From sequence record KC690136: 64,000 nucleotides of DNA; one strand, 5' to 3'. Both the position numbers and the translations under genes were made by a program. Shown here in pieces: positions 1 through 60,977 of this stretch (position 1 is its first letter; each line of letters starts with the position of its first letter). A model generated the notes under the pieces. That model worked only from the letters and a program-made list of their open reading frames with translations. It was not told the DNA's origin and ran no database searches. The stretch comes from Escherichia phage JES2013.

Positions 1-247
1 CCCACACATGTTAACAGACCTGCATGTATGCACTTCTGTTATTGTGTGCACTATGGAGGCCCGGCATCTCGCCCCTCGTAGGCGAGTGCCAATGAAGGGC
101 CGACACTACCCATAGTAAGTAATAAATTTAAAACATGGTACTTAGGATCTAATATATTCTACATAAGTTAAGTATATGTACTTTAGTACCATAAGTACTA
201 GATCTTTTATTTTTTATTATTCAGTTATTTTAGTTATATTCTTTATG

Positions 248-307
248 TGTCCGTATCACGGACAGTTAGTGTCCGTATTACGGGCAGTAGTGTCCGTATC
301 ACGGACA
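248..307. repeat. Three phased copies of a 17-bp palindrome TGTCCGTATCACGGACA (middle copy imperfect), operator-like
   Basis: Copies at about 248-264, 270-286, 291-307, spaced 21-22 bp (two helical turns); perfect inverted symmetry in copies 1 and 3. Confidence 0.6.
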
Positions 308-382: not shown

Positions 383-733
383 CTAACCAGTTGTTGACAT
401 CCGAATAACCTCTTCTGGTGGCAAAACTTTGGAAAATGTGCATCTTTTACCTCTCCCTTGTGTGGATGTTTCAACCACCCCCGCACACTCTAAAGTTTTA
501 ACGCACGCTGCTGCTTTTGTTTTCTTTATCCCAACATCTGCTGCAATTTTCCTTGTGCTTGGTGTGAAGCGTGAATTTCCTCCAAGCTTATACCAGTTGT
601 GCAGGTAGCAGTATACAATCTTGTCATACAAGTCAAGAACAACAACCTCTCCAGTTGTGTCATTCAAAACTTTTGACATAGACAGTATTTCAAGGGGGAC
701 TTTAAGATATAGCAGCTTATCCCCATCTTTCAT
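383..733 (-). CDS. Hypothetical protein, possible helix-turn-helix DNA-binding protein
   Basis: 116-aa ORF; segment TRKIAADVGIKKTKAAACVKTLECAGVV looks HTH-like; no firm motif. Confidence 0.4.
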   Translation of the reverse strand: MKDGDKLLYLKVPLEILSMSKVLNDTTGEVVVLDLYDKIVYCYLHNWYKLGGNSRFTPSTRKIAADVGIKKTKAAACVKTLECAGVVETSTQGRGKRCTFSKVLPPEEVIRMSTTG

Positions 734-780
734 ATCTCCTGATTCTCCTTGTGTGGCAATTTTCTTTAAAATAGCAGGGA

Positions 781-1335
781 TTACTCCCCGCTGTCAATAG
801 CAAAACTCATTGCAATACGGTATGCTTCTTCTAATGGTAAGAGTCTCCCCCACACATCCCAACCGACATCAAGCTGCCTGCCAAACAACTGTTGTGTGGT
901 TCCGTGAGCATGACCGAACAGTTGGACTGATCCATGAGGCTTTCTGTTCCACTTTGCAAACTGGTAATGGCTCATACAGATCAAATTCTTGTTGTGGCGA
1001 AGCTCGTAATAATCTACAACCTCGTGATAGAACTCTTTCATAATTCTGACAGTCGTCCTTGTGTCATGGTTGCCACGAACAAGAATAATATGTCCGTTCA
1101 ACATATTTAGAATATCCGGGAGTAAGTTGTTGATATTCTTATCATTAGTGCACGCAATATCTCCCAAGTGGAACACAGTGTCTGCAGGTGACACAACAGA
1201 GTTCCACTCGGCGATGATTCCTGCATTCATACTGTCAAGATTGTGATCATACTGAGATCTGTGTTTTTGACATGAATCAAACTCCATGACCCGCTGGTGG
1301 AGAAAGTGTGTGTCGCTTGTTACAAAGTATTTCAT
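781..1335 (-). CDS. Calcineurin-like metallophosphoesterase (putative 2',3'-phosphatase partner of kinase)
   Basis: Motifs SDTHF, GDIA, GNHD, GHAHG; start refined to internal ATG (MKYFVTSDTHF) with GAGGAA SD; 7 nt downstream of kinase stop. Confidence 0.7.
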   Translation of the reverse strand: MKYFVTSDTHFLHQRVMEFDSCQKHRSQYDHNLDSMNAGIIAEWNSVVSPADTVFHLGDIACTNDKNINNLLPDILNMLNGHIILVRGNHDTRTTVRIMKEFYHEVVDYYELRHNKNLICMSHYQFAKWNRKPHGSVQLFGHAHGTTQQLFGRQLDVGWDVWGRLLPLEEAYRIAMSFAIDSGE

Positions 1336-39574: not shown

Positions 39575-40120
39575 CCACACAGACCTGAAGAGTCAGCCAG
39601 AAATATCTGAATGGACCCAATTCTGCCCTGTTATGAGCCGTAGCGACTGGAGTGCTGCCAGGCGGACGAAATGGGAATACTTCTCATTCTTATAACAATT
39701 CTCAAATATCGAGGCAGTGAGGCAAATTAATAGGTAAGGCCGTTCACATAGTGGCACAACATTTGCAGTCTATCTGATGTGGTTGAATGAGAATACCTAT
39801 CATTGTGAGAATAGTTATCATTACGGGCAATTTAACATAATACCCATTATGCGCACCACTGGCGATACATACAGGGATTGATAACATGAGTTACTGTTTA
39901 CGCATATAACAATTATATTTCTTATCATTTGTGTGGGATATAGTTAGCAGCCGATAGATTAGATATTGACCTGCGGACTTCTGACCGTCTAGACGTCTAA
40001 ACGCCCACACAACAAGGCTTATACATACATCGCTGAATGTAAACATGGCCGCAAAAATGCTACCATACAAGATTGTAAATTTTTCATGCAGCACTTGACA
40101 AAGAGGAGAAAAACTTGTCT

Positions 40121-40162
40121 GACACTTTAGACATACTGGTGACACAATATGACACTTTAGAC
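40121..40162. repeat. Direct repeat GACACTTTAGAC (two copies, 30 bp apart), followed by iterated TGTTTAC/TGTTCAC motifs to about 40360
   Basis: Exact 12-mers at 40121 and 40151; at least eight (A)CTGTTTAC-like motifs in the next 200 bp. Confidence 0.55.
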
Positions 40163-40449
40163 TTAATTGACATGCCTGACTGTTTACGCTGTCACTATTC
40201 GCGCTATTACTATTCACTCCCTTTACTGTTCACGCTCTTACTGTTTACATGCTTAATGGTTTACATGCTTAATAGACTGCATGTCTAATAGTTTACATAG
40301 CTAACTGTTCACATACTTATCATTTACATGATTGACTGTTTACACAGAGATGATAAGCCATGACATTCGTTTGCATGACAATAATTAACAAGATAACAAT
40401 TGACAAGCTAACAGCCAACAAGCTGACAATTAACTTGTTTACAATAGAT

Positions 40450-40615
40450 GACATAATATAAAAGCAGGGCAACTATTAGAAGATCTATAGTTGCCTTGCT
40501 TGTTATGTCATGATTAACTAAATACAAGGCAACTATGATCTGATTAATAGTTTGCAAACAAACTATCACGGGGGTGATGGTTACTGCTTTTATATTATGT
40601 CGCGACTCCGTCGCG
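40450..40615. repeat. Nested inverted repeats: 18-bp arms GACATAATATAAAAGCAG / CTGCTTTTATATTATGTC around palindrome GGCAACTAT-N10-ATAGTTGCC, plus CGCGAC-tcc-GTCGCG
   Basis: Arms at 40450-40467 and 40584-40601 are exact reverse complements; inner palindrome 40468-40495; GGCAACTAT also recurs at about 40517 and 40634. Confidence 0.6.
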
Positions 40616-41295
40616 CCATGCCATTCGTTTGCATAGTTGCCTTATTGTTACAGATAAAATAATTGTATTGTTAATTATTTCTTATCTTTCTATTAGTCAT
40701 CTAATGATTCCAGTCAATATAGTAATGTACAGTAAACATTAGACGACTAAAGATTTATCTGCTTATAATAACTTACCGTGACAATTTCGGACTGTTTACG
40801 AAAAATGTTGGCACCTAAGCTGATTTATGTTATGCAGTTTACACGAATAATTATTTTATGCAGGTATTGACTATTCCATTATTCTATGGTTGGAATAAAT
40901 ACTTAGCAGACTATAGAATGGTGAGCGTACGTAAATTCTGAGATCTGGCGGCTATAGTTATACTCGATTTTTCACGTAGAGCACGCTTTTGTGGTTATGT
41001 AAGTGTATGACTTATAAAGATTTTTAGTTGTTGACAAGACACTGAAGATATGCATCAGGTTAAATTTTGTGCAATAGCTGCATTACGTGCAATTTTGGAA
41101 GGAAAAACGGGTAAAAATAGCCCTGCTACCACACAATGAAAAGTTATGCAATAGTTATTTTACATGTATATTTGTACAGTGTGTGGGGTTGATGGCTCGT
41201 CAATTATTCCACTTGCCAGGTAGGGCCGTTTATGGTAGGGGGAAGATCAGACAAAAAGAAAGGGGCCTAAGCCCCTTGATAATTCAGTTAAAAAA

Positions 41296-41715
41296 TTATA
41301 ATGATTCGTATATTTCAAAAATCCGATTTGCCAGGTCGTTACGGTACCGGAATTTTTCATCACGTTTGATCATAAGATCTTTATAGCCGTACTCTTTAAG
41401 CACTTCATTAACTTTATGGCGGCACACCTTCATATTATCCTGAGCGTCACCAATAAACCTGTTGCTATGGTGCATGGCTTTAATTTCTTCTTCCAGGACC
41501 AGGGCAACTATGCGGACCGGATCAAGCTGATAGGCGGTAACATCAATGCGGCATTGTAAACGGCTTTTTACGTCTGCCACCGGATATACTGCAACCTCTT
41601 CCCCGTCAACATTGACAATAATTAGTTTACCATCGATTTCGAATCCTTTCGCCGCCGGACCGTGACAAAAAGCGTTATCAAAGCTATATGCCGGATTATT
41701 AGATTTAATGTTCAT
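41296..41715 (-). CDS. Hypothetical protein
   Basis: 139-aa ORF; last gene of leftward block. Confidence 0.5.
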   Translation of the reverse strand: MNIKSNNPAYSFDNAFCHGPAAKGFEIDGKLIIVNVDGEEVAVYPVADVKSRLQCRIDVTAYQLDPVRIVALVLEEEIKAMHHSNRFIGDAQDNMKVCRHKVNEVLKEYGYKDLMIKRDEKFRYRNDLANRIFEIYESL

Positions 41716-57746: not shown

Positions 57747-58111
57747 TATTTGTCTCCTTGTTCTTCGTTAGTGCTTGCCGTGTGTGCGAACCCTGCTTGA
57801 ATTAATTTGTCCTGAACTTGAGCCAACAGGCCCATTGCAAAACTTGTGGTCCCAGAGAGGGCCATCAGCATATCCCGTTGTTGAGCTACCCAACCTAAGG
57901 CATAGTCCAAACGACGATATTTTTCTTCTTCACGCAAAGCTTGGAATAATTGTTCAGCCTCTGGCTGTTGTGTGAGCTCCTGAAGTCTTCCCATGAAAGA
58001 AGAAAGCACTAGCAAAAGAGACACTTGATCTTTACTTAACCCTAAGAAAAATTCTTGAGGTTGTTCTTGCTCGTTCATCGCAACCGACTCTTGATCGTTC
58101 ATTTGTTCCAT
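57746..58111 (-). CDS. Hypothetical protein
   Basis: 121-aa ORF. Confidence 0.45.
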   Translation of the reverse strand: MEQMNDQESVAMNEQEQPQEFFLGLSKDQVSLLLVLSSFMGRLQELTQQPEAEQLFQALREEEKYRRLDYALGWVAQQRDMLMALSGTTSFAMGLLAQVQDKLIQAGFAHTASTNEEQGDK

Positions 58112-58194
58112 TATGGAATCTCCGATTTTATTTGAACAACATAGAAGGAGACACTATTTTAGCATCCCCTTCTGTAAATTACAATAGGTATTTG

Positions 58195-58440
58195 TTAGCC
58201 AATCACTTCGAAAGTTCCCCAATTCCCGTCCAGCAGGCAGGTGATCGGATCCCCATCGTCGTCAAAGATTTCAAAGTTTTCAGCATCCAGGATGTGGCCC
58301 TCGAACACAATACTTTCGTCGCCACCACCAGAGATAACAGCGTATTCCTTACCTTGAGTCAAGTTTTGACACCCTTTGCCACCAAAACCTACTTCAACAC
58401 AACGTACTTTCTGTCCTGCGCGAGCAACTACTTCAGTCAT
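58195..58440 (-). CDS. Hypothetical protein
   Basis: 81-aa ORF. Confidence 0.45.
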   Translation of the reverse strand: MTEVVARAGQKVRCVEVGFGGKGCQNLTQGKEYAVISGGGDESIVFEGHILDAENFEIFDDDGDPITCLLDGNWGTFEVIG

Positions 58441-58457
58441 CTTAAGGTCTCCTGATA

Positions 58458-58778
58458 TTAATCGTCAAGTTCAAAATAGATTTTAACAGCTTCATCGAAG
58501 ATTGGAATCCCGATGTTGTTGATAAGCTGCCAAACTACCATATCTTTACCTGGATCTGGGAGAATGTCAACCTTTCTCCATGCGCTGTATACCCAGTTCG
58601 GACCGCCTTCTGCACTAACTGGCAGATTTTCACCAGCCTCCTGTAGATACTTATACAGCAAAAGATATTCTGGATACTCCAGAACACTGTCCTCTGTAGT
58701 ATATAGCAGTTCACGGTATACTTTTAAGAACCCTGCTGGGGTGATGTTTTCAGTCTTCATTTGCTGCTTCTCCTGCAT
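58458..58778 (-). CDS. Hypothetical protein
   Basis: 106-aa ORF. Confidence 0.45.
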   Translation of the reverse strand: MQEKQQMKTENITPAGFLKVYRELLYTTEDSVLEYPEYLLLYKYLQEAGENLPVSAEGGPNWVYSAWRKVDILPDPGKDMVVWQLINNIGIPIFDEAVKIYFELDD

Positions 58779-59139
58779 TCATCAGATCTGCCATAGCGTC
58801 ACCCACGAAGAGAACAACCACATCGTTTACCGCGTCAGCATCATCTTTGTTGACGTTGCTGAATTTAGGACACACAGCAATAATCATATAGACACCGTTA
58901 CCCACCTGAACTGTCCGTGTGGTGCACATCATGGCGGTATTTGTGCCTTCTTTGAAGGCGAAGCCTTGAAGACGCTCCTCTAGAGTGTTACCGGTAGACT
59001 TCAGAAGCGCCAGCTCGTCCAAGGCATAGATGATATCTCCGGAAGTTAGTGTTGCCTTGCCATCAGACACCATAATCACTTCATCAGCACCGTCAAGCTT
59101 AGAGGCTTCAAAGATATCAATATCCCAAATATTTTTCAT
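58750..59139 (-). CDS. Hypothetical protein
   Basis: 129-aa ORF. Confidence 0.45.
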   Translation of the reverse strand: MKNIWDIDIFEASKLDGADEVIMVSDGKATLTSGDIIYALDELALLKSTGNTLEERLQGFAFKEGTNTAMMCTTRTVQVGNGVYMIIAVCPKFSNVNKDDADAVNDVVVLFVGDAMADLMNAGEAANED

Positions 59140-59411
59140 TACGCTTCCTCGTCGTCTAAGTAATCATCAAGAGAGGTGAAGATTTCACCGAAGTATTCTA
59201 AGATTTCTAGCTCACGTGTGGTGCAGCAAACATAATCGCCTTGGTCGTCCTTAATAGTGGCCTCTTTACCCAGAATATCTACTTCAAGTTCATCGTTCAA
59301 CAGGACGGCCCCTGTGTAAACTTTGTCAGCTGTGCAGTCCCGAAAAGCAGAGTCCTTCTCCAGATAGTCTGGCTTAACCTTGGCTTTAATTCGTTGGTAT
59401 TGTTTGGTCAT
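59139..59411 (-). CDS. Hypothetical protein, paralog family C
   Basis: KPDYLEKDSAFRDCT...KDDQGDYVCCTTRE parallels 59475 ORF; start refined to ATG. Confidence 0.45.
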   Translation of the reverse strand: MTKQYQRIKAKVKPDYLEKDSAFRDCTADKVYTGAVLLNDELEVDILGKEATIKDDQGDYVCCTTRELEILEYFGEIFTSLDDYLDDEEA

Positions 59412-59474
59412 TGTTGTGGTCCCCTTTCGTTTTGATAGGACCATTGTATTAGGTCCTATCGCTGTTGTCAAGTA

Positions 59475-59729
59475 TTAATGTTCAGGTTTTACAAAAACGA
59501 CTTCATTAACAGTGCACCAGACAGAGTCTCCTTCATCATCTTTAAAGGTAAGGCACTGTGCTGAGTTTTCCAGCTCATCGATCTCTTCTTGTGATAAAGG
59601 GGCCCCTTCTTCCAGAAGGGCTTTTACCAGAGGGTTCTCACAAAACTCTGCTTCATAAATTGCACCGACTGTGCAATCTTTAAAAGCTCGGTCATTTGCA
59701 ACGCATTCTGGCTTCAAAGTAATTTTCAT
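59475..59729 (-). CDS. Hypothetical protein, paralog family C
   Basis: KPECVANDRAFKDCT...KDDEGDSVWCTVNE; tandem to 59139 ORF. Confidence 0.45.
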   Translation of the reverse strand: MKITLKPECVANDRAFKDCTVGAIYEAEFCENPLVKALLEEGAPLSQEEIDELENSAQCLTFKDDEGDSVWCTVNEVVFVKPEH

Positions 59730-59805
59730 CTTGGCAGTCTCCTTAGTTATTTAAAAATCACCGATCTGTTTGTGTGAAGCATCTTATATCTAATCTTACT
59801 TCTTG

Positions 59806-60204
59806 TCAATGGCTATTTTCAATCAGCCACACAGGGTCGAGGTAAATTTGTTGGCGTGTTGCCCAATGACAAACTTCATTGTACATCTGAATCTCTTTGT
59901 CCGTCAGTTCACGAATAGGCTCATCTATACCCTCATTTTTGTGGTAATCCCAGTCGGCATCGATTTCCCACAGCCATGACTTGTTGTCACCACGCTTACG
60001 CACACAGAAGTCACCGGGACGGCCTGCCAATGCATTTAAGAACTCGTTCTCCGCTCGCTCTTGGAGAATACTAAGGAGCAAAACGTTAGAACATGACCGT
60101 AGAATATGCTTCAGCTCACAATCATCAATCTCAACTTCAATACGTTGTTTGACTGTGTGGGTACCTTTTACTAACATCCTACCTCCTCTAAACGAACTCT
60201 GCAA
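59806..60204 (-). CDS. Hypothetical protein
   Basis: 132-aa ORF. Confidence 0.5.
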   Translation of the reverse strand: MQSSFRGGRMLVKGTHTVKQRIEVEIDDCELKHILRSCSNVLLLSILQERAENEFLNALAGRPGDFCVRKRGDNKSWLWEIDADWDYHKNEGIDEPIRELTDKEIQMYNEVCHWATRQQIYLDPVWLIENSH

Positions 60205-60382
60205 GGGTTGTGTTGTTCACTGCACCGCAGTAAATGGAGTATCCCAGCCCATTAGAGTGCAGAAACCACGGCGTGCCGAAATTATCTTTCACGTAGACAT
60301 CACCGTTGCTTGTAAAGGGCCAATATTCTTCACCAAGGGTGAAATACCTACTCATACCCTCAGCCAGATACTTTACTTTCAT
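60188..60382 (-). CDS. Hypothetical protein, paralog family D
   Basis: WFLHSNGLGYSIYCGAV...LAEFV parallels 60379 ORF. Confidence 0.45.
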   Translation of the reverse strand: MKVKYLAEGMSRYFTLGEEYWPFTSNGDVYVKDNFGTPWFLHSNGLGYSIYCGAVNNTTLAEFV

Positions 60383-60606
60383 AGGCCCTCTTCAACAGCT
60401 ACAAACTTGGCAAGCAGGGTGGTTCCGTAGATATGATACTCACCGTTTGCCAGATGGGAGATAAACCAGGCAATCCCTTCCTCGTCTTTAATCATCTTGT
60501 TTGCACGATTTTTATCGTAATAAACCTCGTAGGTCTTTCCTTCTTTAAAGAATGACAGGTCTGTCATCTTTTCTTCTACAAAAGTAGCTTTAACCAAAGT
60601 TGTCAT
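60379..60606 (-). CDS. Hypothetical protein, paralog family D
   Basis: WFISHLANGEYHIYGTTLLAKFV. Confidence 0.45.
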   Translation of the reverse strand: MTTLVKATFVEEKMTDLSFFKEGKTYEVYYDKNRANKMIKDEEGIAWFISHLANGEYHIYGTTLLAKFVAVEEGL

Positions 60607-60977
60607 TGATCGGTCTCCTTCTTGTTAAGTCTGAATACTGCAATAATAGCATTCCCAAGGTGCAGTGTCAAATCATTTCCAAGATACCACAACATTCCAC
60701 GGTCATCTTTAATGAAAGGGTAACAATCTGGTGCCTTCCAGACATTGTACACTTTCCCAACCTGAAAGAAATCAGGCCCTGTTGGGATTTTGGTGCCAGG
60801 CCACACTTGGGATACCTGAACACACTCCACCTGCATAATAACAGGAATAGTCATGGATGTAAATGTTTTTGTTGGTTCTACTACCATAAAAGTCTCCTCT
60901 TTGCTTAACAGCACCTCCCTGTGCTGATAGTTTACATTAGTGACAATCACCCCAGTTACGACCACACAAGTATTCAC
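60603..60977 (-). CDS. Hypothetical protein (possible family D relative)
   Basis: DDRGMLWYLGNDLTLHLGNAI; 3' of DNA polymerase gene. Confidence 0.45.
   Translation of the reverse strand: MNTCVVVTGVIVTNVNYQHREVLLSKEETFMVVEPTKTFTSMTIPVIMQVECVQVSQVWPGTKIPTGPDFFQVGKVYNVWKAPDCYPFIKDDRGMLWYLGNDLTLHLGNAIIAVFRLNKKETDQ

Follow-up and report, generated by a model that had tools for sequence, protein, structure and literature searches.

A phased palindrome array beside a small winged-helix protein gene as a candidate replication origin of rV5-like phages

Near the left edge of a 64,000-nucleotide stretch of Escherichia phage JES2013 DNA (record KC690136; hereafter the window) lies a tandem array of short palindromes that, on balance, we believe to be the iteron set of a Vequintavirus replication origin, with the 116-aa protein encoded beside it as a candidate initiator made up of a DNA-binding domain only. 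Neither iteron origins nor RepA_N-type initiators are new; judging from sequence comparison and a predicted structure, what would be unusual is that a large virulent enterobacterial phage has an initiator consisting of the DNA-binding domain alone. Phages of the rV5-like group are widely isolated and are used in E. coli O157 typing and biocontrol, and the first 3 kb of the window is 100% identical to E. coli O157 typing phage 4 and 96–99% identical to more than 100 Vequintavirus (rV5-like) genomes. Some database records label the gene ‘replication initiation protein’ and some label the array ‘repeat_region’, with no link drawn between the two; the literature that we searched contains no paper linking rV5-like phages or Vequintavirinae to an origin or to iterons.

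The array contains exact copies of TGTCCGTATCACGGACA at 248–264 and 291–307 and, between them at 270–286, the copy TGTCCGTATTACGGGCA with 2 changes, at start-to-start intervals of 22 and 21 bp. An initial annotation had described two perfect copies and one with two changes at 21–22-bp spacing, and both the motif count and shuffling bear this out: 100 dinucleotide-preserving shuffles of the window gave a mean of 0.10 matches at ≤3 mismatches, and the observed count was reached in none of them. Tandem Repeats Finder, which is independent of the motif search, also delimits the array. Each unit is an imperfect palindrome with 7-bp arms and a non-symmetric 3-bp centre. The array is at the same time a tandem direct repeat with a unit of 21–22 bp, a feature that goes beyond the initial description, and several direct repeats of about 17–22 bp in helical phase are a mark of iteron-type origins. 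The features of the array are:

247–314, no strand: the tandem array as a whole, with a period of 22 and 3.1 copies, counting a degenerate partial unit (Tandem Repeats Finder).
248–264, no strand: iteron 1, TGTCCG-TATCA-CGGACA, exact, found in all relatives examined.
270–286, no strand: iteron 2, TGTCCG-TATTA-CGGGCA, with an A-to-G change in the right half-site that is common to nearly all relatives.
291–307, no strand: iteron 3, the counterpart of iteron 4 in four-copy relatives (ten-variant alignment).

In the same alignment, the window is without the unit TGTCCGCGTGACGGACA and its spacer, exactly 21 bp, which is the third unit of the four-copy relatives.

We extended the sequence leftwards with the typing phage 4 record (L001; window position equals L001 position minus 6000). 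The palindromes stay in non-coding DNA on this extension and do not fall within a conserved coding region, the finding that had been named as speaking against them. They sit in a 640-bp non-coding gap flanked by minus-strand genes for proteins of 116 aa (383–733) and 192 aa. Their position 3' of the minus-strand gene ending at 383 was described correctly: the array lies 75 bp past the stop codon and immediately to the right of a block of 20% GC. From right to left, the gap comprises a 75-bp spacer, the array, the 133-bp 20%-GC block and a GC-rich block of approximately 250 bp. The features in and around it are:

383–733, minus strand: gene for the 116-aa winged-helix protein (rV5 ORF79), a candidate iteron binder that resembles a RepA_N-type N-terminal DNA-binding domain.
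308–332, no strand: hypervariable spacer between array and gene, 25 bp, 17 of the 25 columns variable.
115–247, no strand: AT-rich block, 133 bp, 20% GC, two GATC sites, candidate DNA-unwinding element.
201–213, plus strand: 13-mer GATCTTTTATTTT, the sole exact match to GATCTnTTnTTTT in the 64-kb window.
1–110, no strand: right end of the GC-rich conserved non-coding block, of which approximately 140–170 bp lie past the window edge.
768–797, minus strand: sigma-70-like promoter before the 116-aa gene (TTGACA, 18-nt spacer, TATTTT, upstream TG).

The AT-rich block abuts iteron 1, and an AT-rich region beside the repeats is another mark of iteron-type origins. Within it, GATCTTTTATTTT fits GATCTnTTnTTTT, the E. 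coli oriC 13-mer consensus; however, the window has one exact 13-mer and no conserved DnaA box, and the likeness to oriC may be chance in AT-rich DNA. The best DnaA-box candidate in the gap, TTATCCAAA, was rejected, as it is not kept among relatives. The promoter at 768–797 (L001 6797–6768) corresponds to the rV5-annotated ‘P76’. Inside the 640-bp gap no sigma-70-like promoter was called and the late-promoter motif proposed for rV5 is absent, and no intrinsic terminator (GC-rich hairpin followed by a T run) was called in L001 5000–8200. An Rfam scan of the 5 kb around the array returned tRNAs only, and the array region is absent from complete RefSeq E. coli genomes. The GC-rich block (L001 5860–6110) is conserved above the level of its surroundings and may or may not belong to the origin. 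Its RNA folding z-score is −2.8 on both strands, with no compensatory pairs seen among relatives and no Rfam match. ORF78, which the rV5 annotation places in this block, was rejected as a real gene, given that substitutions are even over codon positions (10/11/9) and mostly non-synonymous.

Sixteen further array sequences were read, nine from GenBank phages and seven from assembled metagenomic contigs. Four units at 22-21-21 bp are found in most relatives (rV5, inoa, ECML-10, Aya, SYGMH1 and five metagenomic contigs), three units in typing phage 4, nomo and bov10K2, with a different unit lost in each, and two in YN3. As isolates have 2–4 units, the precise make-up of the array is not critical. 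Where the gene for the 116-aa protein was checked in phages with reduced arrays (nomo, bov10K2 and YN3), it is intact, and in bov10K2 the right half-site of iteron 2 reads CGGACA. In an alignment of ten variants, 1 of 48 columns varies in the half-sites (outer hexamers), 5 of 20 in the central 5 bp, 0 of 13 in the between-unit spacers, 11 of 130 in the AT-rich block and 17 of 25 in the stretch from array to gene. Half-sites and centres differ in variability (Fisher p = 0.007, ten variants), and a contig that encodes a 70%-identical protein has kept TGTCCG-TGTGA-CGGACA in diverged flanks. Hence the idea of helically phased dyad sites on one face of the helix gains support from the relatives, which vary in the centres and spare the outer hexamers. 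Near-invariant TGTCCG/CGGACA around a variable centre is the pattern of a predicted dimer-binding site, and hexamers 11 bp apart with free centres in a fixed two-turn register are expected from a dimeric DNA-binding protein, not from an RNA hairpin. We predict with good confidence that the adjacent 116-aa protein binds the array. The hypervariability of 308–332 contrasts with the near-invariant array and spacers, and may be the remnant of a further, decaying repeat unit or a scar left by recombination.

By sequence, the nearest homologues of the 116-aa protein are initiators. It matches PHROG 12838 ‘replication initiation protein’ (E 5e-80) and, more weakly, three other initiator PHROGs, and its best PDB match by sequence is 4ro3 (E 3e-6), the N-terminal domain of Vibrio cholerae PLE RepA (PMC7145576). 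Its Pfam scores lie just below the cut-offs for DUF6945 (PF22182; 27.4 versus 28) and HTH_36 (PF13730; 24.5 versus 25), and the 70%-identical variant P0013 is above both (30.5 and 28.2, respectively). Pfam RepA_N (PF06970) gives no match at E up to 0.1, and there is no Pfam match to the Phage_rep_O (lambda O) family (PF04492). A single-sequence AlphaFold model was unusable (pLDDT 39), whereas a model from a 14-sequence alignment has a pLDDT of 82; its six best Foldseek matches are 4ro3 and staphylococcal RepA N-terminal domains, the latter as matches 3–6 and including a Rep–DNA complex. The predicted model has a winged-helix fold like that of the solved RepA N-terminal domains, although the winged-helix fold is generic. 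The protein stops after the winged helix and the C-terminal domain is absent. As a candidate for the linked gene for a sequence-specific initiator that iteron-type origins have, the neighbour encodes a homologue of an initiator DNA-binding domain without any further domain, and this protein corresponds to the RepA N-terminal domain alone.

Word-indexed and exhaustive searches recovered only vequintavirus copies and a small clade of 182–217-aa relatives, and an IMG/VR protein scan with the 116-aa protein gave no relatives. Gene and motif are limited to one genus and are absent from the other Vequintavirinae genera. Distant homologues of 182–195 aa (on L111 and L112) are encoded amid replication genes; upstream are an AT-rich block and two AGGTACA motifs at a distance of 22 bp, with no clear tandem array. 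These homologues (P0009, P0014, P0016, P0020, P0015, P0017–P0019 and P0021) have C-terminal extensions that end in acidic tails (...DEAPF or ...GEPF), which resemble the SSB C-terminal tip, or in PWE(A/I/V), and their genes adjoin those for a primase-helicase and DNA polymerase A. We also considered ORF77 (192 aa) as a split-off RepA C-terminal half, but it is unlike anything in the PDB, Pfam or the longer homologues, and its 51%-identical relative has a different context with no origin-like region, which leaves the split-RepA idea unsupported.

Several characterized systems combine a related domain with repeated sites. PLE RepA binds semi-palindromic iterons that are needed for PLE replication, as established by gel shift and deletion (PMC7145576, PMC8263062), and its authors assigned it to RepA_N by structure, not sequence (PMC7145576). 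PLE differs in that its RepA has an extra C-terminal domain and its iterons are approximately 30 bp, with longer sub-repeats around an A-tract; the unit centres of the Vequintavirus arrays (TATCA, TATTA and CGTGA) form no A-tract, and the array lies outside the neighbouring gene. PLE is also a helper-dependent satellite, whereas an rV5-like phage is a 137-kb virulent myovirus with its own replisome genes. The 120-aa N-terminal domain of pSK41 Rep binds four Rep boxes, oligomerises and bends DNA, and a separate C-terminal domain contacts DnaG primase and is essential (PMC5703833). The phage protein is similar by predicted fold to the approximately 120-aa winged-helix N-terminal domains that pSK41 and pTZ2162 place on four Rep boxes. 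In these plasmids, however, the origin is inside the rep gene and the primase-binding C-terminal domain is essential, whereas the phage array lies 75 bp past the stop codon and the phage protein ends after its N-terminal domain. In pPR9, the place of the RepA_N domain can be taken by an N-terminal domain of the PF13730 type, which supports replication (PMC5703833).

In layout, the array also resembles lambda ori, which is annotated in NC_001416 as four 18-bp dyad iterons spaced 20, 24 and 23 bp apart and followed by an A-rich block. Lambda ori and the four-copy arrays share dyad iterons of 17–18 bp about two turns apart, with conserved half-sites and variable centres, and each has an A/T-rich block after the iterons and a place in the phage early region. 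Lambda nevertheless differs in that ori lies within the O gene and that the O C-terminal domain, unlike anything in the 116-aa protein, recruits P and DnaB, and homology between the 116-aa protein and lambda O is undetectable by BLASTP (E 0.29). In phage ICP1, a RepA-like domain has been recruited into the anti-satellite nuclease Odn (PMC8263062), which is thus likewise a lytic-phage protein with a RepA-like N-terminal domain that recognises iterons. Odn, however, is a T5orf172 nuclease fusion aimed at a satellite origin, whereas the 116-aa protein has no nuclease and its sites are in its own genome.

The strongest comparative argument for an origin is that what look like parallel modules occur in other Vequintavirinae genera. 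In KB57 (Mydovirus), a gene next to a divergent intergenic region encodes a 122-aa protein that matches PHROGs of the DnaD-like and replication-initiation kinds and, by hhalign, the family profile (E 1.4e-4). TATTCC-N6-GGAATA occurs three times beside it, twice in tandem at 24 bp, and the AT-rich block has 20% GC and three GATC sites. In EspYZU14 (Seunavirus), a 105-aa protein matches phrog_8102 (E 1.4e-35), DUF6945 (E 1.4e-5) and, weakly, lambda-O-like PHROGs and PHROG 12838; two copies of CTCAAATTGATA lie 23 bp apart and the AT-rich block has 16% GC. The layout of gene, repeats and AT-rich block is common to the three genera, and AGATCTTTTA is present in the AT-rich blocks of the window, KB57 and EspYZU14. 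Exchangeable replicon modules would be expected to show just this, one layout filled in each case by its own small initiator-like protein and its own repeat. More tentatively, Vequintavirinae might in general start replication with a 105–122-aa initiator that is a winged-helix domain alone, each genus having its own initiator–iteron pair, a generalization that we regard as possible but doubtful. If it is true, a T7-like primase-helicase would need no more than origin recognition and remodelling by the N-terminal domain in order to load itself, whereas to our knowledge every characterized RepA_N, O or Rep initiator has a recruitment domain.

We scanned the complete rV5 genome (137,947 bp) for the motif, GC content and skew. 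The search for further copies that had been suggested at the outset confines the motif (≤1 mismatch) to the four-copy array at 65152–65232. The equivalent of the AT-rich block, 65011–65150, is the lowest-GC 120-bp window of the genome (20% versus a mean of 43.6%). Cumulative GC skew has its global minimum at 66,689, 1.46 kb from the array, but we rejected skew as an origin locator, given that the minimum falls exactly on the point of divergent transcription, where replication and transcription are inseparable; it is compatible with an origin at the array and does not decide. In the rV5 genome paper, skew changes follow transcription, and the origin was looked for by skew in 2013 and none was defined (PMC3606486). 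A motif scan of IMG/VR gave 104 loci, essentially all single chance palindromes and none like the array. Among unrelated sequences, a GC-rich viral contig (L083 1798–4426; IMG/VR 3300042691_021677) carries six dispersed (T/A)GTCCG-N5-CGGACA versus 0.02 expected; its copies of the same palindrome are 350–750 bp apart and not tandem.

An origin at the array would work as follows. The 116-aa protein would be expressed early from its own sigma-70-like promoter and one dimer would bind each dyad, the half-sites, being 11 bp apart, falling in successive major grooves. The 21–22-bp period would set all dimers on one face of the helix, and dimer–dimer contacts would bend or wrap the DNA, as in the staphylococcal RepA N-terminal domains. 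Strain from the bending or wrapping would then open the adjacent 133-bp AT-rich block, where the T7-like primase-helicase (rV5 gp230) and DNA polymerase (gp228) of the phage would load. As the protein has no C-terminal recruitment domain, recruitment would either be unnecessary or come from a partner. Against an origin speak the lack of a Pfam RepA_N match, the missing domain that is essential in pSK41, the flexible unit number, the restriction of gene and motif to one genus, and a skew minimum that is explicable by transcription alone. Transcripts or recombination can also start replication in large virulent phages. Elsewhere in the window (approximately 39.6–41.3 kb), a further ORF-free, repeat-dense region could be the origin or one of several.

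The main competitor, which we consider distinctly less likely than an origin, is an operator or roadblock. The 116-aa protein would then be a regulator that binds the phased sites cooperatively, and would either repress an unrecognised promoter of the leftward genes (ORF77 onwards) or block ORF81–79 read-through. The initial annotation called the array a classic cooperative operator, and of this the phased dyad sites hold, as they suit cooperative binding by a repressor, and the 116-aa protein is the obvious candidate binder; the promoter that an operator should overlap or flank is missing, as neither a sigma-70-like site nor the late motif is found in the gap. The array is also 3' of the neighbouring gene and not at its promoter, and it is the single site cluster in the whole rV5 genome. 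These same observations count against control of a transcription unit beyond the window edge, which had been suggested. Many other structural neighbours of the 116-aa protein are MarR-, LexA- and ArsR-type regulators and the rV5 record labels ORF79 a ‘putative transcriptional regulator’, but its nearest homologues by sequence are the initiators described above. One KB57 repeat is immediately upstream of the start codon of the small protein, as for autoregulation, and plasmid iterons often double as operators. An operator would, however, leave the adjoining AT-rich extreme unexplained.

The array is improbable as any other kind of site on the DNA, be it for packaging (pac), for partition or centromere-like function, for recombination (a hot spot) or for the exclusion of competing phages or satellites. 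Both pac and parS sites carry repeated protein-binding sites, and an rV5-like genome is on record as an E. coli ‘plasmid’, but the terminase genes are 4–5 kb away, the 116-aa protein has no link to packaging, and there is no partition ATPase nearby. ICP1 took the same RepA-like domain into its anti-satellite nuclease (PMC8263062), whereas the 116-aa protein is without a nuclease domain, and none of these sites would explain the AT-rich block or the initiator homology. Least likely, and improbable to a high degree, are tandem RNA hairpins at the 3' end of the ORF81–79 message that act as terminators, processing sites or stabilisers: the array is just 3' of the gene, each unit could form a 6–7-bp GC-rich hairpin and folding is far better than in shuffled sequence on both strands (z −4.8 to −6.8), but low folding energy is a trivial outcome of repeated palindromes, none of the hairpins is followed by a T/U run, no intrinsic terminator was called, on the minus (gene-sense) strand the conserved change in unit 2 mispairs C with A, the CGTGA and TATTG variants lose the seventh pair, no compensatory change is seen, and the fixed 21–22-bp spacing and invariant spacers are left unexplained.

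The proposal of an iteron origin reduces to a candidate origin of approximately 200 bp and a candidate 116-aa binder, and is hence concrete and directly testable. Confirmation would bring the RepA_N/PLE-type initiator domain, known from Gram-positive plasmids and a Vibrio satellite, into large virulent enterobacterial phages, in a form pared down to DNA binding, and would be of use to phage engineers, for instance when replicons are built or sites to be avoided are chosen.

Three further observations concern the wider genome. The region at 39600–41300 of the window is repeat-dense and ORF-poor, lies at convergent transcription and equals the rV5 ‘non-coding’ box at approximately 104–106.6 kb. 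It includes at least 10 copies of a 15–16-bp ACTGTTTAC(A)-type unit at 40166–40344 and several inverted repeats, among them AAGCAGGGCAACTAT/ATAGTTGCCTTGCTT at 40462–40501, and may serve as another origin, in packaging or as some other cis element. The genome deposited as a plasmid (PLSDB CP057073.1; 137,565 bp) is a complete rV5-like genome from cattle faeces that is listed as a non-mobilisable E. coli ‘plasmid’ and encodes the 116-aa protein with 97% identity. Finally, the gene for the terminase large subunit is split: the two annotated pieces in typing phage 4 (L001 1–2222) have an endonuclease VII gene between them, and in rV5 the terminase CDS (58027–60872) is joined from three pieces with an HNH homing endonuclease within.
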